A stretch of 52,744 bases of DNA, taken from contig JAPLXU010000018.1 of assembly GCA_026395915.1 (NCBI GenBank), positions 23,832-76,575 of the forward strand, in the 5' to 3' direction. Source of the stretch: Candidatus Nomurabacteria bacterium. GTDB taxonomy: Bacteria > Patescibacteriota > Minisyncoccia > Phycocordibacterales > UBA9973. The notes below the pieces were generated by a model. That model saw only the letters and a program-made list of their open reading frames with translations. It was not told the origin of the DNA and did not search any database. The position numbers were made by a program, and so were the translations under genes. This document shows positions 1,100-50,206 of the stretch, piece after piece. How positions within the stretch are numbered: position 1 is the first letter of the stretch; the number at the start of each line of letters is the position of its first letter.

Positions 1100-3421
1100 C
1101 TATTTCTCTTTCTTCCCCAAACGTTCTTTTAATACTCCAATTTCATCTCGCAATATCGCCGCGGTTTCGAAGTCCAATTCTTTCACAGCCTTATTCATTT
1201 CCTTCTCTTTTATTTTAATTATTTTTTCATAAATAAGATTGCCCCGCTCTTCATCAGACAAAATCTGATTCCATAATTCGGAATTAACTTTCTTGCGTCC
1301 GAGTTTTTCCTCTTGGCTGAGTTCTTTGGAATAAGCTTTCTTGAAAACTTCCAAATCAAGTTTGAGTTCCGCATTTACGATTTTTCCATGCTCGCTTTCC
1401 ATCTCTTCAGTAATATCTTTTATCTTTTTTACTATAGTTTTAGGAGTAATACCGTGTTTTTTGTTATAAGCAAGTTGAATATTTCGACGGCGAGCGGTTT
1501 CTTTTAAAGCGTATTCGATGGCGCTTGTCATGACATCGGCGTATAAAATAACTTTACCTTCGCTGTTCCTCGCGGCGCGACCGATAACTTGAATAAGCGA
1601 CGTTTCAGAACGCAAAAATCCCGCTTTGTCAGCATCCAGAATTCCAATCAAAGCAACTTCAGGCAAATCGAGCCCTTCTCGCAGCAAGTTTACACCAACT
1701 AAAACATCAAATTCGCCTTTTCGAAACTGTGTGAGAATCTTGATTCGTTCCATTGTTTTTATATCACTGTGCAGATACTCCGCTTTTATTTTTTTGTCTT
1801 TCAAATAGACAGAAAGATCTTCCGCCATCTTTTTTGTCAGTGTTGTAGCCAGAATGCGAAAACCTTTTGCGATTGTTTTTTCCGCCTCAGCGATGAAATC
1901 TTGAATTTGGCCGGGAAAAAGCGAGAAGTTTTCTTTTTTGGGTGTCTCGCAAGCCGACGGGCCGAGAGGCAGCGCTGGGACAGCAGTCCCAGACAGCGAC
2001 CCAAAAAAGGAAGACTTATCGCTTTTTCCGAAAATTTTACTTTCAGAAACCGGTCTCACTACGGTCTCCGGATCCACGAGCCCAGTCGGACGAATTATTT
2101 GCTCCACAATTTGTTCGCTCTGCGTTCTTTCTTGTTCGCTCGGAGTCGCGCTGGTGTAAATGACGGAACTGATTCTTTTTTGAAATTCCTCATATTTGAG
2201 AGGCCTGTTGTCTTTTGCTGATGGCAGACGAAAACCGTATTCCACAAGGGTATTTTTGCGAGAAGCATCTCCAGCATACATACCTTGGAGTTGGGGCAGG
2301 GTGACGTGTGATTCGTCGATAATTGTCAAAAAACCTGTCTTTGGAAAATATGAAAGCAACGTTTCTGGCGGTTCCCCTTCCGCTTTCCCAGACAAATGTC
2401 TCGAATAATTTTCAATCCCGTTACAATAACCGATCTCTTTTATCATCGCTAAATCATAATTTGTTCTTCTTTTGATTCTTTCCACTTCTAGCAATTTACC
2501 TTCTTTTTTGAATTTTTTAAGTTGAACTTCTAATTCCTTTTTAATATTCACTAAAGCCTTTTTCTTTTTTTCATCCTCAGTTATAAAGTGTTTGGCAGGA
2601 AAAATAAAAATATTTTTTTCCCCGCCTTCATCGCTATGCCAGCCCGAATCGCTACGCGAAGCGTTGCTGGCGGGCGAAGCATTGCGGGCAGGTTCTTTCA
2701 AAATTTGTGACGAGATTGGATCTATTTTAAGAATTTTTGAAATTACCCCTCCTGATATTTCAACTTGATACATAATAGACTCTGAAACAGGCATGAATTC
2801 CACCCTAGATCCGAGGGAACGAAAACTGCCGGGTGTAAGGTCTGCATTTGTGCGTTCGAAATGTATAGCAATGAGAGATTTCATCAAAGCCATCCTGTCC
2901 ATCTTTTGTCCAACCTCTAATTTAAGATTAACTTTTTCATATTCCTCCGGAGAACCCAAACCATAAATACAAGACACTGAAGCGACTATGATGACGTCAG
3001 GACGAGTGAGAAGAGCTTGAGTGGAAGCATGGCGAAGCATGTCTATCTCTTTGTTGATAGAAGCGTCCTTTTCGATATAAGTATCCGAGGCCGGCATGTA
3101 AGCTTCCGGTTGGTAGTAATCATAGTAAGAAACGAAATAGTGCACAGCAGAATTTGGAAAAAATAATTTAAACTCCTGCGCGAGTTGGGCGGCGAGAGTT
3201 TTATTGTGAGCTATCACCAGGGTCGGTTTGTTGTATTCCGCTATCACGTTTGCCATTGTGAAAGTTTTCCCCGTGCCTGTGGCCCCGAGCAATGTTTGTT
3301 TCTTCATTCCCTTTTTGAGCCCTTCACAGAGCTTCGAAATAGCCGAGGGTTGATCACCGCTTGGCTCCCAAGGCTTGCACAACTTGAAAATATTGGACTT
3401 TTTCTCCTCTCTTTTTAACAT
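1100..3421 (-). CDS. uvrB: Excinuclease ABC subunit B (UvrB), 773 aa, enlarged by two GC-rich insertions
   Basis: GATGTGKTFT Walker A, RPTGLVDP, ATTLTKKMAEDLSVYL, C-terminal UVR-like coiled coil (FETAAILRDEI). ATG start at 3421. Confidence 0.95.
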   Translation of the reverse strand: MLKREEKKSNIFKLCKPWEPSGDQPSAISKLCEGLKKGMKKQTLLGATGTGKTFTMANVIAEYNKPTLVIAHNKTLAAQLAQEFKLFFPNSAVHYFVSYYDYYQPEAYMPASDTYIEKDASINKEIDMLRHASTQALLTRPDVIIVASVSCIYGLGSPEEYEKVNLKLEVGQKMDRMALMKSLIAIHFERTNADLTPGSFRSLGSRVEFMPVSESIMYQVEISGGVISKILKIDPISSQILKEPARNASPASNASRSDSGWHSDEGGEKNIFIFPAKHFITEDEKKKKALVNIKKELEVQLKKFKKEGKLLEVERIKRRTNYDLAMIKEIGYCNGIENYSRHLSGKAEGEPPETLLSYFPKTGFLTIIDESHVTLPQLQGMYAGDASRKNTLVEYGFRLPSAKDNRPLKYEEFQKRISSVIYTSATPSEQERTQSEQIVEQIIRPTGLVDPETVVRPVSESKIFGKSDKSSFFGSLSGTAVPALPLGPSACETPKKENFSLFPGQIQDFIAEAEKTIAKGFRILATTLTKKMAEDLSVYLKDKKIKAEYLHSDIKTMERIKILTQFRKGEFDVLVGVNLLREGLDLPEVALIGILDADKAGFLRSETSLIQVIGRAARNSEGKVILYADVMTSAIEYALKETARRRNIQLAYNKKHGITPKTIVKKIKDITEEMESEHGKIVNAELKLDLEVFKKAYSKELSQEEKLGRKKVNSELWNQILSDEERGNLIYEKIIKIKEKEMNKAVKELDFETAAILRDEIGVLKERLGKKEK
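1912..2046. repeat. ~135-bp nested palindromic insertion in uvrB (63-bp GC-rich core 1940-2002 plus ~30-bp inverted arms)
   Basis: Arms cgggaaaaagcgagaagttttcttttttg (1912-1940) and ccaaaaaaggaagacttatcgctttttccg (2001-2030) are imperfect reverse complements. The core GGGTGTCTCGCAAGCCGACGGGCCGAGAGGCAGCGCTGGGACAGCAGTCCCAGACAGCGACCC recurs in inverted orientation in pcrA. It encodes an extra ~44 aa between VRPV and GQIQDF, the region that lies between conserved UvrB motifs. Confidence 0.8.
2620..2690. repeat. Second GC-rich imperfect palindrome, in-frame in uvrB
   Basis: cccgccttcatcgctatgccagc ... gctggcgggcgaagcattgcggg with ends pairing (GCCAGC/GCTGGC, CCCGC/GCGGG) around a CGCT-acgcga-AGCG centre. 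Translated as PARNASPASNASRSDSGWHSDEGG. Strong local GC excess against AT-rich flanks. Confidence 0.5.
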
Positions 3422-8064: not shown

Positions 8065-8100
8065 TGTGTAAATTATACCATTTAAGCTACAATATATAAA

Positions 8101-8858
8101 TGAGCAAGGACTCCCCTTGCTCAAAATTATGTCTAAGAATATAATAGGCAGATGTACAGAAAAACACCATTTGCGGAAAATGAACATTATCATATTTATT
8201 CTCGAGGAGTAGAAAAACGCAAAATATTTTTAAATACGAAAGACTACAACCGTTTTGTTGCCCTCTTGTACATAATGAACCAAACTGATCCATTCAGAAT
8301 GGACAATTTCATGCGCGAAAATAAAAATAATTTAACAAACATTTTCAATGAGGAAAGAAATAAACCTCTCGTGTCAATATTGGGTTATTGTTTAATGCCA
8401 AATCATTTTCATTTGATTTTATACGAACGCACAGAAAATGGAATAAGTAAATTCATGGGCAAGCTCTTAACTGCCTACTCAATGTATTTCAATACAAAAT
8501 ACGAACGAAGTGGTCCCCTTCTGACAAGACCATTCCGATCGGAACATATTAGTAGTGAATCACAATACATGTATATATTTTCTTATATTCATCTCAACCC
8601 ACTCTCAATTATTGATAAAACATGGAAAGAGGATGGCGTGAAAAACAAAAACATGGCAAAAGATTTTTTAGAAAACTATCAATTTTCAAGCTTTCAAGAC
8701 TTTCTCGAAAAAGATCGACCAGAAAAAATAATACTAGATTTTTCGTTAATTCCAGAATATATAAAGAATATGGAATTAGGTTTTAAAACATACGAGCAGT
8801 TATTTCAAGAAAATATCAATGCAAAACAACAGAGTTGAGCAAGGGGAGTCCTTGCTCA
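8101..8858 (+). mobile_element. REP-RAYT-REP unit: Y1/HUH (IS200-like, REP-associated) transposase gene bracketed by perfect inverted 23-nt hairpins
   Basis: 8101-8123 tgagcaaggactccccttgctca and 8836-8858 tgagcaaggggagtccttgctca are exact reverse complements. Each is a 9-bp stem with a 5-nt loop. The right hairpin includes the transposase stop codon. Confidence 0.8.
8152..8838 (+). CDS. REP-associated tyrosine transposase (RAYT) / IS200-like Y1 transposase
   Basis: HUH motif in GYCLMPNHFHLILYE and catalytic-Tyr region YIFSYIHLNPL. 228 aa with an ATG start. Confidence 0.85.
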   Translation: MYRKTPFAENEHYHIYSRGVEKRKIFLNTKDYNRFVALLYIMNQTDPFRMDNFMRENKNNLTNIFNEERNKPLVSILGYCLMPNHFHLILYERTENGISKFMGKLLTAYSMYFNTKYERSGPLLTRPFRSEHISSESQYMYIFSYIHLNPLSIIDKTWKEDGVKNKNMAKDFLENYQFSSFQDFLEKDRPEKIILDFSLIPEYIKNMELGFKTYEQLFQENINAKQQS

Positions 8859-8866
8859 GTTGGGGA

Positions 8867-20148: not shown

Positions 20149-20217
20149 AACCCCCTAACCCCCTTATCAGGGGGAATGAATTTCGCCTCCCCTGACAAGG
20201 GGAGGTTGGGAGGGGTT
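20149..20217. repeat. Double-hairpin GC-rich palindromic element (same architecture as 33553-33619), just upstream of ruvC
   Basis: aaCCCCCtaaCCCCCttatcaGGGGGaatgaatttcgCCTCCCCtgacaaGGGGAGGttgggaGGGGtt: two stem-loops plus outer pairing. The track ORF 20176.. reads through it, but RuvC starts at 20242. Confidence 0.75.
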
Positions 20218-21135: not shown

Positions 21136-21168
21136 AAAAAAAACGGAAGCAAGGCTTCCGTTTTTTTT
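21136..21168. terminator. Bidirectional intrinsic terminator (A8-hairpin-T8) shared by the mini-ORF and tyrS
   Basis: aaaaaaaaCGGAAGCaagGCTTCCGtttttttt. The T-run overlaps the tyrS stop codon. Confidence 0.8.
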
Positions 21169-32578: not shown

Positions 32579-33943
32579 TTATTTAAGAGAAAATTCCCAT
32601 AGATAAGAATCTTTTTTGTTCACAAAAAATAAGTAATTTCCACTGTCGTCTAGAGCAAGTTTTATGCCATCTATTTCTCCCACAGCAATTGTGACTGGAT
32701 CTAGTATCATTGTCCCGTTTCCGGTTTTCACATCTATTTTCCAAATTTGGTCGTTGAAAGACATTTCTCCTTGATACCAAGTATCGGGATATTCTCCTAT
32801 ATTTATTAATTTTGGTACAGCGCAATAAATAGTATCGCTTGCTTTACCCCAAACGCATTTTTCCGGTAGAGTTTTTACTCCTAACACATCGGAATTCCTT
32901 GTGTCTGTGTGATAAATATTGATTGATAAATTGCTGTCGCCATAAAGTATCAGCTTCCCATTAGGGCTTGCAAGTGTGGTCAGTCCGTTTATTTCGCCTA
33001 GAATTTTAGTTAAATTTTTACCCGATCCGTCCATGCTGTATATATACCCCGGAATATTTGCGGAAGGTTTGGTTGAGAGAGTGATGAGGTTGGCAGTTGG
33101 CCAAAGCGATAGCCATTCTGTAAAAGGAGAATCGAATATCTGAGTCTTCTTGTTTGTTAACAAGTTTAGAATCACACCTATCATATCGTCTCCGCTATCA
33201 AACAAGTAAAACACCTTTGAAGTATCTGGCGAGATACTTATATCTTTCACATTATCAGGCAAAAAGTTTCCTTTAATTTCGTTATTTCCTGTCACATCTG
33301 CTCCCAATAACTCTTTCGGAAGGGTTCCAACGAAAGTTTCGATAGTCCTGTCATTTCCTTTTAAATGTCGCATTACGACAGATTCCCCGTGGTTACCGAA
33401 ATATGCATCATGCACTTTAGGTATTATAGTTGAAGAAAATTTTTGCTCTTTTATTTTATCGGCAAAGGTTTGGTAAATATTTCCAGTTGCTATGTCCACA
33501 TATCTCAAAGCCGGCGCGAATTCAGTTGGTGGAGGAGTTGGCTTCTTGGTTTGACCCCCCGAACCCCCCTTAGCAGGGGGGACGCCCTCCCCTGATAAGG
33601 GGAGGGTTGGGGTGGGGTTTGTTATTACCGTTGGAACCTCTTTTAATCTTTCTTTTTGAAAAACTGCAAATCCCGCTATGGGCATACTCGAAATTTTTAT
33701 CAATTTTAACACTGGTGTGTTTGTGACAGGAGGAATATATCCTGAAACATCTACTGGGGGCGTTGTAACTGGAGGCGTCGGCTTGTTGTTGTTTCCGAAT
33801 GGATTGAATTGTGAAAAAAAGTTTGTGCCCCCGCTGTTATCCCCCGGCGCGGTTGTTCCTTTTTGGAAATACAAAAATCCAAAAACGGCGATTACCACGA
33901 GGATTGAGATTATTATTAAAAGTATAAAATTTCTTTTTGACAT
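32579..33943 (-). CDS. Membrane-anchored exported protein with a Pro/Thr-rich linker and PD40/TolB-like beta-propeller-type repeats (last gene of the T4SS-like locus)
   Basis: N-terminal TM FILLIIISILVVIAVFGFLYF, PTPPVTTPPV linker, recurring SPDTSKVFYLF / SPNGKLILYG / DDSGNYLFFV motifs. Confidence 0.6.
   Translation of the reverse strand: MSKRNFILLIIISILVVIAVFGFLYFQKGTTAPGDNSGGTNFFSQFNPFGNNNKPTPPVTTPPVDVSGYIPPVTNTPVLKLIKISSMPIAGFAVFQKERLKEVPTVITNPTPTLPLSGEGVPPAKGGSGGQTKKPTPPPTEFAPALRYVDIATGNIYQTFADKIKEQKFSSTIIPKVHDAYFGNHGESVVMRHLKGNDRTIETFVGTLPKELLGADVTGNNEIKGNFLPDNVKDISISPDTSKVFYLFDSGDDMIGVILNLLTNKKTQIFDSPFTEWLSLWPTANLITLSTKPSANIPGYIYSMDGSGKNLTKILGEINGLTTLASPNGKLILYGDSNLSINIYHTDTRNSDVLGVKTLPEKCVWGKASDTIYCAVPKLINIGEYPDTWYQGEMSFNDQIWKIDVKTGNGTMILDPVTIAVGEIDGIKLALDDSGNYLFFVNKKDSYLWEFSLK
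33553..33619. repeat. Double-hairpin GC-rich palindromic element, in-frame in the 454-aa gene
   Basis: gaCCCCCCgaaCCCCCCttagcaGGGGGGacgCCCTCCCCtgataaGGGGAGGGttggggtGGGGtt. Same two-hairpin plan as 20149-20217. Translated as NPTPTLPLSGEGVPPAKGGSGGQ. Confidence 0.75.
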
Positions 33944-39664: not shown

Positions 39665-40177
39665 TTATTTATTCCCCTCTTGAGGGGTGGCTGAAAGCCG
39701 GGGTGGAAATATCTGTCCACCTCCCTCCGACTTATGGTCGGAGTGCTCCTCAAGAGGAGAATTTTCGCGTGTCGGTTTTACAAATGCGGAATAATCTCCG
39801 CCGGAAAGGATAAAATCAAGATTTTGCTCCGGACTCGGATTCTTGGCTTTCAGATTTTTTTTGACTTTTTCTTCCAAAAGGTCGCCAATCGGAGTGAATA
39901 TTTTTTGAAAGGCTTCTCCGGCGATTTTCTCCGCTTCTTCTTTGCTGGTGCCAACCTCATTTTCGATATTTTGTGCGTAATAGTTTCCGTCTTCCAAGCC
40001 GACGAGAACCAACAAAGTTTCCACTTGCAAATTGTTTATCTCGCTTTCGTCAAACAGATATTTTTTGCCGATTTCTTCAGTAATGCTTCCCCAATCCAAA
40101 GAATTGATAGCCTCTTGAGTCTCTCTTGGCAATTTTGCAATTTCGTCTTGAATTATTTGTTTTAATTTTTCTGTCAT
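39665..40177 (-). CDS. Cytoplasmic hypothetical protein, 170 aa, paralogue of the 218-aa gene; C-terminal 30 aa encoded by a palindromic element
   Basis: See the motif list for 38994..39650. The ORF reads through the element at 39672-39761 and stops at a TAA just beyond it. Confidence 0.55.
   Translation of the reverse strand: MTEKLKQIIQDEIAKLPRETQEAINSLDWGSITEEIGKKYLFDESEINNLQVETLLVLVGLEDGNYYAQNIENEVGTSKEEAEKIAGEAFQKIFTPIGDLLEEKVKKNLKAKNPSPEQNLDFILSGGDYSAFVKPTRENSPLEEHSDHKSEGGGQIFPPRLSATPQEGNK
39672..39761. repeat. 90-bp MITE-like element with 16-bp imperfect TIRs and three internal stem-loops (copy 1)
   Basis: TTCCCCTCTTGAGGGG...CTCCTCAAGAGGAGAA (TIR 14/16). Internal stem-loops GGCT-gaa-AGCC, GGTGGA-aatatctg-TCCACC and CTCCGAC-ttatg-GTCGGAG. 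It shares 22-nt and 18-nt identical ends with 47296-47379. Confidence 0.8.
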
Positions 40178-46108: not shown

Positions 46109-47119
46109 ATGAGATTATTTTGCTTATTTATTCTTTTTGCTTTTTTCTTTTCTTTCCATGTTGTTTTTGCCGATTGCGCTATTACCTCTGTATTGAGGGT
46201 GGGTTCTAAAGGTGCTGAAGTGCAATGTCTTCAAGGAAAGCTAGGGGTAGTTACTGATGGTAGCTTTGGTCCCTTGACCAAGGGCGCGGTGATAGCTTTT
46301 CAATCAAGCAACGGATTGGTAACTGATGGAATAGTCGGACATTTGACTCTTTTAGCGCTCAATCGTGTTAATATCGCGACAAATGAAGGTAATTACCCAA
46401 CGGGTTGCGCAGGAATCACAGGATACAGCATACTTACTGGTATCAAGTGCGATAGTGTTCTAAATAATCCAGTACCTAATAATGCAAATTCAACCCCTTC
46501 GATAGTCAATAATAACAATCAAACTCCACAATCTGGAGTGAGCACCAATAACACGCCGACTAATCCAAACCTTGTGAATTTAGACCAATTTATCAATACA
46601 GTTGTTGAAATTGGCAAAAGAAATGGCAAGAACGATCAGGAACTTAAACTCATAGCTGACAATCTAAAAAAAGTTATTGCAAGTAGTGATATGGATTACA
46701 ATAAAGCGTTTAAAGAACTGCTTATTAATGAGAGTAAACTGAGTGTTAATTCTAACAACAAATCGCTTTTATCCGCTTTTGACAAAGTTGTTGGAAAGGC
46801 GCTTTCTTTTTTGGGAATTACCCCCTCGATAGCTCAAGCTTCTGCCGGTATACCATTTGGTGGCGCACTGATTTTTCCATTTTTTTGCCCTTACAATGCA
46901 AATTGGATGATAGAAATAGAACCCCTCCCTCCGAGTTACGCAGTGCTTCTCAGTTATTATCCTGGAACTCAAGGATTTGCAAGCTATAATATACCTTTTA
47001 CTACATGGTTACTTGGAACTTACTCACCGCCTGGTGTTTGTATGATACCCGGCACTCCTGTTTATGTCATTCCCACTCAAGGTACTATTACTCCAGTGGT
47101 GGGTTCGTCTCCTCTCTAG
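46109..47119 (+). CDS. Secreted peptidoglycan-binding-domain protein with Asn-rich linker and unassigned C-terminal domain
   Basis: Signal peptide. PG_binding_1-like segment GSKGAEVQCLQGKLGVVTDGSFGPLTKGAVIAFQSSNGLVTDGIVGHLTLLAL. Linker NNPVPNNANSTPSIVNNNNQTPQSG. Confidence 0.72.
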   Translation: MRLFCLFILFAFFFSFHVVFADCAITSVLRVGSKGAEVQCLQGKLGVVTDGSFGPLTKGAVIAFQSSNGLVTDGIVGHLTLLALNRVNIATNEGNYPTGCAGITGYSILTGIKCDSVLNNPVPNNANSTPSIVNNNNQTPQSGVSTNNTPTNPNLVNLDQFINTVVEIGKRNGKNDQELKLIADNLKKVIASSDMDYNKAFKELLINESKLSVNSNNKSLLSAFDKVVGKALSFLGITPSIAQASAGIPFGGALIFPFFCPYNANWMIEIEPLPPSYAVLLSYYPGTQGFASYNIPFTTWLLGTYSPPGVCMIPGTPVYVIPTQGTITPVVGSSPL

Positions 47120-48152
47120 CTAAAACAATCCAATCCGCGAGCGACAAATCTTCCGCTCTTTTGTTTCCTAAGCCTTCTAAAACGGAAGCAAGGCTTCCGT
47201 TTTTTGATAGAGTTTTTAGATTAGAAGATAGCTTTTTTCTTTTGTGCGCAAAGCCCGTTTTTACTATTTCCCAGAATTTTTGCTCATCAACCTTATTCCC
47301 CTCTTGAGGGGTGGCTCGTTCGCGAGACGGGGTGGATGCATTTCCACCTCCCCCTAAAGGGTACTCCTCAAGAGGAGAATTGAAATTCTTCCTTGAAATA
47401 TTTTTTATCGAAATTATCGCCGAGTCTACTTTTGGCGCTGGCGAAAAATATCTTTTTTCAACTTTTGCGATCATTTTTGGTTCACCATATGCTTTGACCG
47501 AGATAGATAGGATGCTTTCTTTCTTGCCCGCCATAGCTTTAGCGGAGGAGGGGCTATTTCCAATTATTCTCTGTGCGACTTCGTGCTGAACCATGAGAAC
47601 CATCATTTCTGGCTGATGCGTTTCTTCTAAAAATTTTTTTAAAATCGCGCCGGTGATGTTGTAAGGAATGTTGGCGATGATTTTGTAGGTTTTAGGGTTT
47701 GGTAAAATGTTTTCGGACTCACCACAAAAATTTTCTGCTGAAAATTTTCTCTGTTCGTTGCCGTCGCAACTCCCAAGGGTTCGCTCGAAAACATTTTGCC
47801 AAACCCTTGTAATGTCGAATTTTAATATGTCATCATGTACTAGTACGAGGATACCTGAAGTGATTTGTTCTGCGAATTTGATTTTCAAGAATTCAAAAAG
47901 TTCGTAGTCTTTTTCCACAGCGATTACTGTTCCCGCTTTTTCTAGAAGTTTTTCCGTGAGCGCTCCCCTGCCTGGCCCGATTTCTAAAATCACATCATCC
48001 TGCTTTATTTCCCCCACCTCGATAATTTTTCGGAGAGCTGTCTCCGATTTTAGAAAATTTTGCCCTAATGATTTTTTTGCTCTTATAAAGGTACCACTTT
48101 TTGCGATAGCAGAACTTGGTACCTTTTTATTTTTTTTATAATATCTTTTCAT
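47088..48152 (-). CDS. rsmA: 16S rRNA (adenine1518/1519-N6)-dimethyltransferase RsmA/KsgA, 354 aa, enlarged by two palindromic insertions
   Basis: KKSLGQNFL, SAM motif VILEIGPGRGALT, ANIPYNITGAIL, C-terminal RAEDLSLADW. ATGA start/stop overlap with pcrA. Confidence 0.9.
   Translation of the reverse strand: MKRYYKKNKKVPSSAIAKSGTFIRAKKSLGQNFLKSETALRKIIEVGEIKQDDVILEIGPGRGALTEKLLEKAGTVIAVEKDYELFEFLKIKFAEQITSGILVLVHDDILKFDITRVWQNVFERTLGSCDGNEQRKFSAENFCGESENILPNPKTYKIIANIPYNITGAILKKFLEETHQPEMMVLMVQHEVAQRIIGNSPSSAKAMAGKKESILSISVKAYGEPKMIAKVEKRYFSPAPKVDSAIISIKNISRKNFNSPLEEYPLGGGGNASTPSRERATPQEGNKVDEQKFWEIVKTGFAHKRKKLSSNLKTLSKNGSLASVLEGLGNKRAEDLSLADWIVLAREETNPPLE
47179..47205 (+). terminator. Intrinsic terminator for the PG-binding gene, lying inside the convergent rsmA coding region; exact 27-nt copy of the tyrS terminator
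   Basis: aaaaCGGAAGCaagGCTTCCGtttttt is identical to 21140-21166. It lies 60 nt after the stop at 47119. On the other strand it encodes KNGSLASVLE of RsmA. Confidence 0.6.
47296..47379. repeat. 84-bp MITE-like element (copy 2 of 39672-39761), in-frame in rsmA
   Basis: Same ends and the same central GGTGGA...TCCACC stem. The first stem-loop is replaced by CTCG-ttcg-CGAG. Translated as NSPLEEYPLGGGGNASTPSRERATPQEGNK; copy 1 gives NSPLEEHSDHKSEGGGQIFPPRLSATPQEGNK. Confidence 0.8.
47695..47806. repeat. 112-bp palindromic element with 21-bp TIRs (20/21), in-frame in rsmA; core shared with 20741-20838
   Basis: GGGTTTGGTAAAATGTTTTCG...CGAAAACATTTTGCCAAACCC. Internal hairpins AAAATTTTC-tgc-TGAAAATTTT and GTTGC-cgtc-GCAAC. 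It accounts for ~37 extra aa between HDDILKFDITR and YKIIANIPYN. Confidence 0.8.
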
Positions 48153-50206
48153 ATATAAATTGTTTTTATCCCAGTTTTTTCTCCCTCTTTTTCTAATAAA
48201 TCTGCTGGGATGTCACTAATAAATTCTGAAGGCGCGTTTATTTGGCGTGAACCGAAAATCGTGCGGAAATTTGCGAATGATAAAAATAACTTTTCTTTTG
48301 CGCGTGTAATTGCCACATAAAAAAGCCTGCGTTCTTCTTCTTTATCTGCGCCCACTTCTTCGTTGCTTTTTTGGTGCGGGAAAAGTCCGTCCTCCAAGCC
48401 GGTGACGAAAATATATTTGAATTCAAGCCCTTTTGAAGCGTGCACAGTCATCAGTTTGACTGCGTTTATTGTTTCTTTTTTTTCCCCTCTCTCTATCAAG
48501 CTGTCTTGATCGGAAGCAAGCGAAGCGTCTTCTAAAAGTTTTTCTATACCGAGACCATTTTCGAGATTATCGTATTTTAAGGCCAGTGTTGCAAGCTCTT
48601 TTATGTTTTCCAATCTTTCGATATCTTCCTCGGTACCGGACGAAAGTTCATTTTCAATACCTGATTTTTTCACCACAAATTTTATTACCTGACTGGTTTT
48701 TTCTTGTTTTATTTTTTCTCTTATTTCTTCAAGTATTTTATAAAAATTGTCGATTTTGATTTTCATTTTCACCGGCAAGTTTTCTTTTTCGCCAGAAAAC
48801 ATTTTTGCTAAGGTAGTTTTGCCGATTCCTCGCGTTGGGAAATTTATTATTCTTTTTATATCAGAAAGACTGTCGGGATTGAGCGCAGCGCGGAGATAAG
48901 CGAGAGTGTCTTTTATTTCTTTTCTCTCGAAAAATTTAATCCCCAAAACCTGATATGGAATGTTGTATCGAAGCATAGCTTCCTCAAGCGCCCGAGATTG
49001 GAAATTCGCGCGGTAAAGAACTGCGATACTGGACAAAATGTTCTCAGATTCTGATAGTTCCGCAGGTTCTTCCTTCTCGGGGTCGCTGTCTCCGCGTGTT
49101 CGCGGAGCGCTGCCTCTCGGCTCGTCAGCCTGCGAGACACCCCGACAAGAAAGACCTGCAGAACTATCCAGTATCTCCAAAATTTTTGTTGCAACGAATT
49201 CTGCTTCATCGTTTTCTTCCAATGCTTCGTAGAGGCCTATTTTTTCTCCAGTCTCGTTTTTTGTGAATAGATTTTTGTCTGGTCTGTATTTATTTTTTTT
49301 AATTACGACGTTTGCAGCCTCCAATATGTTCTTTGTTGACCGATAGTTTTCCTCCAACAAAACTATTTTCGCGTTAGGATAATCTTTTTCAAAACTCAAA
49401 ATATTTTTCAAATTCGCTCCGCGCCAAGAATAGATATTCTGGTCTGCGTCTCCGACGACGCAGATGTTTTTGTGGTTTTCCGCCAGCATTTTTGCCATCA
49501 AATATTGCACTTCGTTTGTGTCCTGATACTCGTCTATGTGGATGTATTCCCATTTTTCTTGATATATTTTTCTGATTTCAGCATTATCCTTCAACAATTT
49601 TGTGGCTTTCAAAAGCAAGTCGTCGAAATCAAGCGAATTTTCTTTTGTTTTCCGTTTTTCATACAAGTTCCAGACTTGAGCCACCATCCTGCCGTAGGCA
49701 CTCTTCTCCCCTTCTTCATAATCCGACAATTGGACGAATTTTCCCTTTTCCCGAGATATAATATTTTTTATTTTTTTCGGATCGTATTGTTTTGGGTCTA
49801 TTCCGATCTCTTTCAATATTTCTTTTATGAGAGTTGTGCTTTCTGACTCATCTAAAATGCTGAAGTATCTTGTGAGTCCGAGCAACCTAGCATTTTCTTT
49901 TATAATATAAACCCCGAGAGAATGAAAAGTGCTGACGAATGGAATTCTCTCTTGGCCTTTCACGTTTTTTTCAATTTCGGCAATAACACGCTCGCGCATT
50001 TCTTTTGCCGCTTTGTTGGTAAAAGTGACAGCCAAAATTCGCTCAGGATCAACTCCATTTTTTATCAGATTCACAATCCTGTGCGTTATGGTTTTAGTTT
50101 TTCCCGCGCCAGCGCCGGCAACAATAAGAAGCGGACCATCCGAATGGATCGCCGTTTCTTTTTGTTCTTTATTTAGTCCCGATAGGTGTTGTGTGTCTGT
50201 ATTCAC
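48149..50206 (-). CDS. pcrA: ATP-dependent DNA helicase PcrA/UvrD (GTG start), carrying a ~135-bp palindromic insertion
   Basis: LNKEQKETAIH, AGAGAGKTKT, DEYQDTN, VGDADQNIYSWRGA, TVHASKGLEF, YVAITRAKE. Confidence 0.92.
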   Translation of the reverse strand: MNTDTQHLSGLNKEQKETAIHSDGPLLIVAGAGAGKTKTITHRIVNLIKNGVDPERILAVTFTNKAAKEMRERVIAEIEKNVKGQERIPFVSTFHSLGVYIIKENARLLGLTRYFSILDESESTTLIKEILKEIGIDPKQYDPKKIKNIISREKGKFVQLSDYEEGEKSAYGRMVAQVWNLYEKRKTKENSLDFDDLLLKATKLLKDNAEIRKIYQEKWEYIHIDEYQDTNEVQYLMAKMLAENHKNICVVGDADQNIYSWRGANLKNILSFEKDYPNAKIVLLEENYRSTKNILEAANVVIKKNKYRPDKNLFTKNETGEKIGLYEALEENDEAEFVATKILEILDSSAGLSCRGVSQADEPRGSAPRTRGDSDPEKEEPAELSESENILSSIAVLYRANFQSRALEEAMLRYNIPYQVLGIKFFERKEIKDTLAYLRAALNPDSLSDIKRIINFPTRGIGKTTLAKMFSGEKENLPVKMKIKIDNFYKILEEIREKIKQEKTSQVIKFVVKKSGIENELSSGTEEDIERLENIKELATLALKYDNLENGLGIEKLLEDASLASDQDSLIERGEKKETINAVKLMTVHASKGLEFKYIFVTGLEDGLFPHQKSNEEVGADKEEERRLFYVAITRAKEKLFLSFANFRTIFGSRQINAPSEFISDIPADLLEKEGEKTGIKTIYI
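49033..49171. repeat. ~135-bp nested palindromic insertion in pcrA: same core as the uvrB element, in the opposite orientation relative to the host gene
   Basis: The reverse complement of core 49079-49143, GGGGTGTCTCGCAGGCTGACGAGCCGAGAGGCAGCGCTCCGCGAACACGCGGAGACAGCGACCCC, aligns along its length with 1940-2002. The arms ctgatagttccgcaggttcttccttctcgggg and ccccgacaagaaagacctgcagaactatccag are imperfect reverse complements. It encodes ~45 extra aa (DSSAGLSCRGVSQADEPRGSAPRTRGDSDPEKEEPAELSESENIL). Confidence 0.8.

Follow-up and report, generated by a model that had tools for sequence, protein, structure and literature searches.

The BoxC/PIT/TM repeats, reportedly described by Bachellier and colleagues in the 1990s and by Hoyne et al. 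in 2000, have been known for some 30 years and are conserved in hundreds of genomes, their function and the manner of their spread being, to our knowledge, still unexplained. Two further kinds of short bacterial repeat must be considered here, namely the Rickettsia palindromic elements (RPEs), said to have been described by Ogata et al. in 2000, and the REP/REPIN sequences, which Nunvar in 2010 and Bertels and Rainey in 2011 reportedly associated with RAYT (Y1 HUH) transposases. The present analysis concerns a short palindromic repeat that lies in frame within rsmA (ksgA), the gene of an rRNA methyltransferase, in a stretch of 52,744 nt of Candidatus Nomurabacteria bacterium (hereafter “the window”), corresponding to positions 23832-76575 of contig C4 in an 812-kb, 20-contig genome of 39% G+C (labelled G000), the source assembly being 96% complete. 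The family to which it belongs, called below the rsmA repeat family, recalls the three-block class II intrastrand-triplex rule described for BoxC/PIT/TM_ECO by Holder et al. (2015; PMC4666352), according to whom TM_ECO is always intergenic in E. coli; RPEs, on their part, are mentioned in PMC10969869 and PMC1779305. Taken together, the evidence makes it very probable that the segment is a copy of a dispersed GC-rich palindromic repeat which entered rsmA and is tolerated there, a triplex-type dimer subject to turnover and possibly aided by genes of the DUF559 family.

The rsmA segment (copy 2) and a second segment of the window (copy 1) have the same ends. The left end, TTATTCCCCTCTTGAGGGGTGG (22 nt), has exactly two matches in the window, at 39669-39690 and 47293-47314, and 0 matches in 100 shuffles of it; the right end, CTCCTCAAGAGGAGAATT (18 nt), consists of the same letters in both copies, which also have in common the central stem GGTGGA...TCCACC. 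ATT stands at either end of copy 2. Both copies lie on the plus strand within minus-strand open reading frames (ORFs) and are read in one frame, giving NSPLEE...GGG...ATPQEGNK. An earlier inspection of the letters alone (the sequence-only reading) had recognized a second copy in frame within rsmA, which was borne out with limits refined, in Table 1, by codon alignment against empty orthologues; the identity of the ends over 22 and 18 nt, the common central stem and, by ORF translation, the shared orientation, frame and peptide were likewise found as stated, save that the 18-mer, begun there with TA/TG, was off by one base. That an rRNA methyltransferase and a secretion-locus protein share one cassette also holds: rsmA has a clear RrnaAD match, and copy 1 forms the C-terminal tail of a 170-aa ORF (NSPLEEHSDHKSEGGGQIFPPRLSATPQEGNK, then a stop, one codon past the repeat) that belongs to a type IV secretion-like locus, where a TraG/VirB4-like ATPase and a TrbC/VirB2-like pilin are also encoded. 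In RsmA, whose S-adenosylmethionine-binding and NIPYN motifs are intact, the repeat is accompanied by two further lineage-specific inserts. A genome-wide census found that the ends recur beyond these two copies (C7:63214-63336, C2:79497 and C2:80189), and alignment of the RsmA orthologues of the genus found ~19 of 30 empty at the site (ISRKxFxxNKIxEExFW), which argues that the segment is not native to RsmA. Its identification as a dispersed inverted-repeat element is thus supported.

By its letters, the repeat consists of two ~45-nt modules joined head to head, each composed of a pyrimidine arm, a purine arm, a hairpin and a mirror third block. On the plus strand the left module runs CCCCTC-TT-GAGGGG, TG, hairpin H1, AC, GGGGTG, and on the minus strand the right module runs CTCCTC-TT-GAGGAG, TA, hairpin H3, G, GAGGTG; the two differ by one triplet, changed jointly in the three blocks (C/G/G to T/A/A), a difference that is invariant across 33 aligned copies. 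The central stem is the pairing of the two third blocks, the left one doubling as the 5' half of GGTGGA/TCCACC (47331-47348). The dimer is 75-105 nt long, has 17-nt terminal inverted ends (ATTCCCCTCTTGAGGGG / CTCCTCAAGAGGAGAAT) and is predicted to fold, on either strand, into a cloverleaf in which a 16-bp closing stem, made from both ends, carries three hairpins (z -4.5 to -6.8); the folded dimer has G.T mispairs at three positions, kept in 32-33 of the 33 aligned copies. RNAalifold applied to these copies found no covariation, the paired stems being invariant, so that support of this kind is missing because the stems never vary; the variable hairpins were handled by script, since MAFFT cannot align them. 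A strict scan of the whole genome (a pyrimidine-arm hairpin followed by a mirror block within 34 nt) returned 56 three-block motifs as against 0 in five block-shuffled genomes, and the third block tracks more than 30 distinct arm sequences among the 56, 27 of which lie within long ORFs. We infer that single-stranded DNA, and neither RNA nor protein, is the level at which the conserved structure acts.

Table 1. Coordinates of the repeat, its parts, its host genes and the DUF559 genes of the source genome (window positions unless a contig is given)
Feature	Position	Strand	Remarks
Copy 2 of the repeat, in rsmA	47295..47381	+	87-nt net insert, 29 codons, RsmA N258-N286
rsmA/ksgA, 354 aa	47088..48152	-	Pfam RrnaAD E=8e-49; peptide across copy 2 = NSPLEEYPLGGGGNASTPSRERATPQEGNK
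Left module, terminal hairpin	47298..47311	+	CCCCTC (47298-47303), loop TT, GAGGGG (47306-47311); invariant in 33 aligned copies
Connector hairpin H1, hypervariable	47315..47326	+	CTCG-TTCG-CGAG
Left third block GGGGTG	47329..47334	+	mirrors purine arm GAGGGG, T opposite A (class II triplex rule)
Right module	47345..47380	-	CTCCTC-TT-GAGGAG (47364-47377), H3 CCC-TTTA-GGG (47352-47361), GAGGTG (47345-47350)
Copy 1 of the repeat	39671..39762	+	92 nt; codes for the final 31 aa of the 170-aa ORF
170-aa ORF hosting copy 1	39665..40177	-	in the type IV secretion-like locus
DUF559 gene	C11:67423		
DUF559 gene	C2:24915		
DUF559 gene	C1:18124		
DUF559 gene	C3:51863		

The connector between the purine arm and the third block is constrained in its fold and free in its sequence. 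In 161 modules in non-identical contexts, gathered in the genus and by scanning GTDB genomes, it takes 120 distinct sequences with 66 distinct stems, and a Watson-Crick stem of at least 4 bp is present in 78% of the connectors as compared with 12% after shuffling. GNA triloops make up 46 of the 120 loops, and C-G closes 41 of these 46; C-G-closed GNA triloops are a signature of very stable DNA minihairpins. In the window, copy 1 has GGCT-gaa-AGCC for its first hairpin where copy 2 has CTCG-ttcg-CGAG, and the third varies too (CTCCGAC-ttat-GGTCGGAG versus CCC-taaa-GGG). Orthologous insertions keep their ends and exchange their hairpins, as seen in tsaD (genomes G005 and G028), in rsmA of six species and in the 170-aa ORF (G000 and G005, where the orthologue of copy 1, locus L009, has another H1 and another H3), and H1 and H3 variants are combined mosaic-fashion among the copies. 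The structure-preserving replacement of a module claimed by the sequence-only reading is therefore valid family-wide, since only the fold of the connector, not its sequence, is constrained; its observation that the first hairpin changes in sequence and keeps its form stands as well. Rather than RNA UUCG-type loops, the connector hairpins look like single-stranded DNA hairpins, because C-closed GNA triloops dominate and the copies are found in either orientation relative to their host genes.

In the rsmA repeat family both modules follow the three-block rule (CCCCTC/GAGGGG/GGGGTG and CTCCTC/GAGGAG/GAGGTG), under which the third block is a mirror of the purine arm with G facing G and either T or A facing A. 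The likeness to BoxC/PIT/TM extends to GC-richness, multiple copies, presence in many bacterial genomes, frequent inverted pairs and local gain and loss, and in other Nomurabacteria this RsmA site is itself occupied by BoxC-like units (family B, TM_ECO-like). There are also differences: loops of 1-6 nt under the ITxF definition, with a usual connector of 3 nt, are replaced here by a hypervariable hairpin of 10-20 nt (the first loop being 2 nt and the second connector, consisting of TG, the hairpin and (A)C, 10-30 nt overall), the arms are 6 nt instead of ~10 nt long, two units joined head to head make up a cloverleaf of 85 nt, and the copies sit in frame inside genes. A comparison with the TM_ECO consensus, CCCTCGCCCCTTTGGGGAGAGGGTTAGGGTGAGGGG, failed to reveal sequence likeness, the arms being CCCCTC versus CCCTCGCCCC. 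The family, whose copies are dimers of modules of BoxC/PIT type, is related to the BoxC/PIT triplex repeats, and it presents their three-block rule with built-in tests in the form of the one-triplet covariation and of a hairpin connector of free sequence.

With the RPEs the rsmA repeat shares its nature of short palindrome in a reduced genome, found in frame in essential genes, read through, located in surface or linker regions and provided with no known mover. On the other hand, the RPEs belong to another phylum, are ~100-150 nt long (75-105 nt here) and represent another sequence family, set apart by description, and they differ from the rsmA repeat family in its triplex-type modules, its cross-phylum spread and its candidate partner gene, DUF559. 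By analogy, the rsmA repeat could be said to work like an RPE and to be built like BoxC/PIT with a hairpin connector; ultra-small bacteria would thus be able to harbour triplex-type repeats in essential genes, where these, like RPEs, form translated linker loops. The REP/REPIN sequences resemble it in that hairpins occur as singlets and inverted doublets and in that a small gene is bracketed by its own repeat in a family-specific pairing; the bracketed gene, however, is here a Vsr-like DUF559 nuclease and not a Y1 transposase. REPs are normally extragenic and species-specific. As to the MITEs of bacteria (miniature inverted-repeat transposable elements), such as Correia, ERIC and Nezha (reviewed in PMC10969869), the small size, terminal inverted repeats, long foldback, patchy occurrence among related genomes and occasional in-frame insertions are similar, whereas for the rsmA repeat family there was found neither a clean target-site duplication nor an insertion sequence that has a DDE transposase and the same ends and could be its parent, and its ends are hairpins with a third mirror block. 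The term “MITE-like” used in the sequence-only reading is therefore apt for size and terminal inverted repeats, but the repeat is no classical MITE, neither a target duplication nor a transposase-derived parent having been found.

The left end is present in 6 of the 37 genus genomes searched, a reversed-pattern control giving 0 matches, and in the scan of GTDB genomes a module pattern of 23 specified bases matched at least 120 stretches in genomes labelled with at least 15 phyla. Among the matches listed, the labels comprise Nomuraibacteriota, Minisyncoccota, Saccharimonadota, Bacillota, Thermotogota, Nitrospirota and others, as well as Bacteroidota/Ignavibacteriota (Kapaibacteria, one complete chromosome included). 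Full dimers with an rsmA-type right end occur mostly in lineages of the candidate phyla radiation (CPR), and outside the CPR the module is single or takes the form module-spacer-inverted module. The module pattern had 0 matches in 2.9 million viral contigs; Rfam gave no match at gathering score and none meaningful at E<=10, and the literature search gave no match for the exact end sequence and nothing relevant on palindromic or in-frame repeats in CPR/Patescibacteria.

Inside long ORFs are found 18 of the 42 distinct full copies, their hosts including, besides rsmA and the 170-aa ORF, tsaD and a 609-aa ORF on C7 that reads the repeat in the same frame as rsmA. Fourteen of the genic copies are read from the minus strand (NSPLEE...TPQEG) and have, in 12 cases, a length divisible by three; the other four are read from the plus strand in two other frames, the host frame being kept by all four lengths. 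Copies outside long ORFs are distributed 9/12/3 over the three length classes. The TGA in the CTCTTGAGG hairpin loop closes one frame at each end, and that frame is never used. Such a bias in length and frame is the pattern expected under open-frame filtering and argues that the genic copies are translated, not removed from RNA. Since the repeat family is spread over many phyla, the insert can be regarded as selfish or neutral DNA read through as protein, and GC-rich low-complexity inserts in Patescibacteria proteins would accordingly have to be annotated as inserted repeats, not as lineage-specific functional domains.

Within RsmA, the structural alignment with PDB entries places residues 250-288 (39 residues) where KsgA of B. 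subtilis (6ifs) has 11, in the stretch joining the methyltransferase domain's final strand to the opening helix of the C-terminal domain. In an AlphaFold2 model made with 65 homologues the insert lies between strand 244-250 and helix 290-300, residues 251-289 being coil with a predicted local distance difference test score (pLDDT) of ~50 as against >90 in the core; the insertion site thus maps to an interdomain linker, and the insert is probably translated as a disordered loop. The net length of the insert is a multiple of three, and the frame in which it is read is free of stop codons. The 116 nearest scorable homologues have at the site the rsmA repeat family in 39 cases, nothing in 35 and other inserts in 42, the latter consisting of 14 BoxC-like units (family B), 13 members of a third triplex family and 15 unclassified sequences. 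When the tree is built without the insert columns, 30 changes are required to account for the rsmA repeat family (shuffled mean 32.8), at least six changes of repeat state are imposed by well-supported branches alone, and well-supported small clades hold three or four different site states. Many homologues carry the same family at the site, a circumstance that the sequence-only reading had named, together with a chance origin of the shared ends, as refuting its view, but they do so patchily across the tree. Among six species the repeat is 80-96% identical, a 36-nt stretch and the far end being identical in all six, whereas the rest of rsmA is 64-75% identical. Two contigs from Hainich groundwater (L185 and L186) have rsmA genes that are 95% identical, one with a full copy and the other with an 18-nt single-hairpin footprint, which provides a clean case of loss by deletion between CTCCTC direct repeats. 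This permissive site has probably seen repeated gain, overwriting and loss of copies, and the linker qualifies as a hotspot of gain, replacement and loss because the site states are scattered on the tree, the repeat is more conserved than the gene and a footprint is seen.

RsmA contains other lineage-specific sequences. A second in-frame insert (window 47690-47800, aa ~124-156, RTLGSCDGNEQRKFSAENFCGES; AlphaFold2 pLDDT 45-60) is missing in most orthologues and present in two genus genomes (G019 and G021), and it looks to be a member of a further in-frame repeat family, since its peptide also matches ORFs of other genomes that code for unrelated proteins. A third, short one (window ~47520-47560, GNSPSSAKAMAGK, aa ~199-210; pLDDT <50) is lineage-specific, and other orthologues carry different short inserts at the same spot. 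Finally, a 27-nt terminator-like hairpin, AAAACGGAAGCAAGGCTTCCGTTTTTT, occurs in inverted orientation at window 47179-47205 and 21138-21164, one copy being inside the 3' end of rsmA, where this gene overlaps the convergent gene 46109..47119.

With regard to what might move the repeat, the four DUF559 genes of the source genome are all flanked by triplex-type repeats, each by another family. In the genus there are 32 DUF559 genes, 24 of which have strict motifs in their flanks (14 on both sides and 10 on one side), and the flank windows hold roughly 55 strict motifs when about 5 are expected from distal-flank density. In G005 a 156-aa DUF559 ORF (Pfam E=3e-22) is bracketed by inverted modules of the rsmA repeat family, starting just before one module and having as its stop the TGA of the other module's hairpin loop. 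A DUF559 gene lies within 170 bp of a module at 6 of 8 loci of other phyla, and two DUF559-plus-module units are in frame within restriction-modification genes. When the ORFs near 144 modules were clustered all against all, DUF559 emerged as the sole recurrent neighbour, and in E. coli the DUF559 gene ycjD is 168 bp from TM_ECO #9 (position taken from Table 1 of PMC4666352). In other genomes such DUF559-plus-module units are in frame within ORFs of 980-1130 aa, restriction-modification genes among them (G034:C8, G026:C23, G010:C43; L149 and L151).

RAYT/Y1_Tnp was considered as a partner and rejected, the eight Y1_Tnp genes being flanked by other simple hairpins or by none and never by the rsmA repeat family. 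One Y1_Tnp (RAYT/IS200-like) gene lies in the window at 8098-8861, bracketed by 27-nt inverted hairpins (GAGCAAGG-ACTCC-CCTTGCTC) of which there are 8 copies genome-wide; most of the 8 Y1_Tnp genes have a flanking hairpin of their own. In the source genome, neither a longer element bounded by the same ends nor a parent insertion sequence was found.

On these grounds it may be proposed, with a confidence that falls slightly short of an even chance, that DUF559 nuclease genes (Vsr-like, PD-(D/E)xK), themselves bracketed by modules, help the repeats to propagate or to become homogenised; DUF559 thereby offers a testable enzyme candidate for BoxC/PIT-type repeats. Going one step further, the triplex-type dimers could be the non-autonomous half of an undescribed kind of mobile element whose enzyme is a DUF559 nuclease and not a transposase, a tentative suggestion that we hold to be possible and somewhat doubtful. 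Under this suggestion the DUF559 nuclease would recognise the extruded or single-stranded fold, possibly through the conserved G.T mispairs, Vsr-type enzymes being active at T:G mismatches, and its action would then trigger copying or overwriting of repeats through repair, the RsmA hinge being a recurrent landing site for module dimers. If the suggestion is true, the same logic would also explain the orphan BoxC/PIT repeats near ycjD in E. coli.

A different explanation would do without a dedicated enzyme, the repeats being spread and homogenised by nothing but host recombination, gene conversion among the copies and replication slippage at palindromes and DUF559 genes merely settling nearby, for which the repeats could be, for example, safe landing sites. 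The failure to find a target duplication, the deletions between short direct repeats within the palindrome by which copies are lost, the mosaic combination of hairpin modules and the presence in the source genome of family copies without a cognate DUF559 gene are all in keeping with it, as is the fact that PMC4666352 ties BoxC to local instability with no mobile partner found. However, 23 exact bases recur across at least 15 phylum labels, which can hardly be accounted for unless an active unit was transferred horizontally, and the flanks of the DUF559 genes are strongly enriched in repeats in what looks like a family-specific pairing (four genes, four families). We consider this explanation unlikely, though deserving of attention. 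Several observations must in turn be set against the reading preferred here, that of an inserted triplex-type repeat possibly aided by DUF559. For BoxC, PMC4666352 found no evidence that a triplex forms in vivo; the phylum labels come from the records of metagenome-assembled genomes and may include binning errors; and the RsmA tree is weakly resolved, so that the number of gains and losses is uncertain. The junctions shift by a few codons between lineages, because of which true homing and a merely permissive linker are not separable; no clean target-site duplication emerges when filled sites are compared with empty ones, and the ATT that flanks 12 of 14 genus copies on either side could belong to the repeat itself. 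As to DUF559, it is placed in two ways, within the dimer or between outward-facing modules, none of the four genes in the 96%-complete assembly is flanked by the rsmA repeat family, and the link is correlative, strong as an association and mute on mechanism.

The remaining explanations place the selection, or the origin, elsewhere. The cloverleaf could be selected at the RNA level as a cis-regulatory or self-processing structure: the predicted folds are strong on both strands, the closing and central stems are conserved, and some copies have UUCG, CUUG or GNRA-like loops. Yet the invariant stems give no covariation support, even a permissive Rfam search was negative, the copies occur in either orientation relative to host genes and also between genes, the frame-preserving lengths of the genic copies would be needless if the RNA were removed, the loops are dominated by C-GNA-G DNA minihairpins, and purine-motif triplexes do not form in RNA (PMC4666352); a structured RNA is accordingly very unlikely. 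The shared peptide NSPLEE...GGGG...TPQEGN might instead be a protein module with a function, under selection for its amino acids and shuffled from protein to protein, as its reading in the same frame in rsmA, the 170-aa ORF, the 609-aa ORF and many RsmA homologues could suggest; but other genic copies, read in two other frames, give unrelated peptides (IPLLRGG..., NSPLEGW...), more than half of the copies lie outside long ORFs, the core nucleotides are 100% identical at all codon positions in host genes that are ~70% identical, and the segment is predicted to be disordered, all of which makes a selected peptide most improbable. Finally, a similar peptide at the same place in 39 of the 116 close RsmA homologues is what would be seen with an old, vertically inherited linker whose likeness to copy 1 is coincidental or convergent. 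Against this stand the identity of the ends over 22 and 18 nt, for which the chance expectation is 0, the many homologues that are empty or have other repeat families at the site, a conservation far above that of the surrounding gene and the dispersal of the family in unrelated genes and spacers; the probability of such an origin is practically negligible.

Other repeats occur in the window. The UvrD/PcrA helicase gene (48149..50206, minus strand) holds in frame an 85-nt repeat that belongs to another family (49068-49152), and a second copy, inverted and 81% identical, lies in uvrB (repeat 1930-2014; gene 1100..3421, minus strand); here, too, the central hairpin is swapped and the structure kept (GGGAC-TGCT-GTCCC versus CCGCG-TGTT-CGCGG). 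The same family fills the second RsmA insert site in genome G013. Triplex-type modules of still other families are found at 171-208, 20150-20216 and 33554-33618, the first and the last of them inside long ORFs, that at 33554-33618 being in a 454-aa ORF (32579..33943) which adjoins the type IV secretion-like genes.

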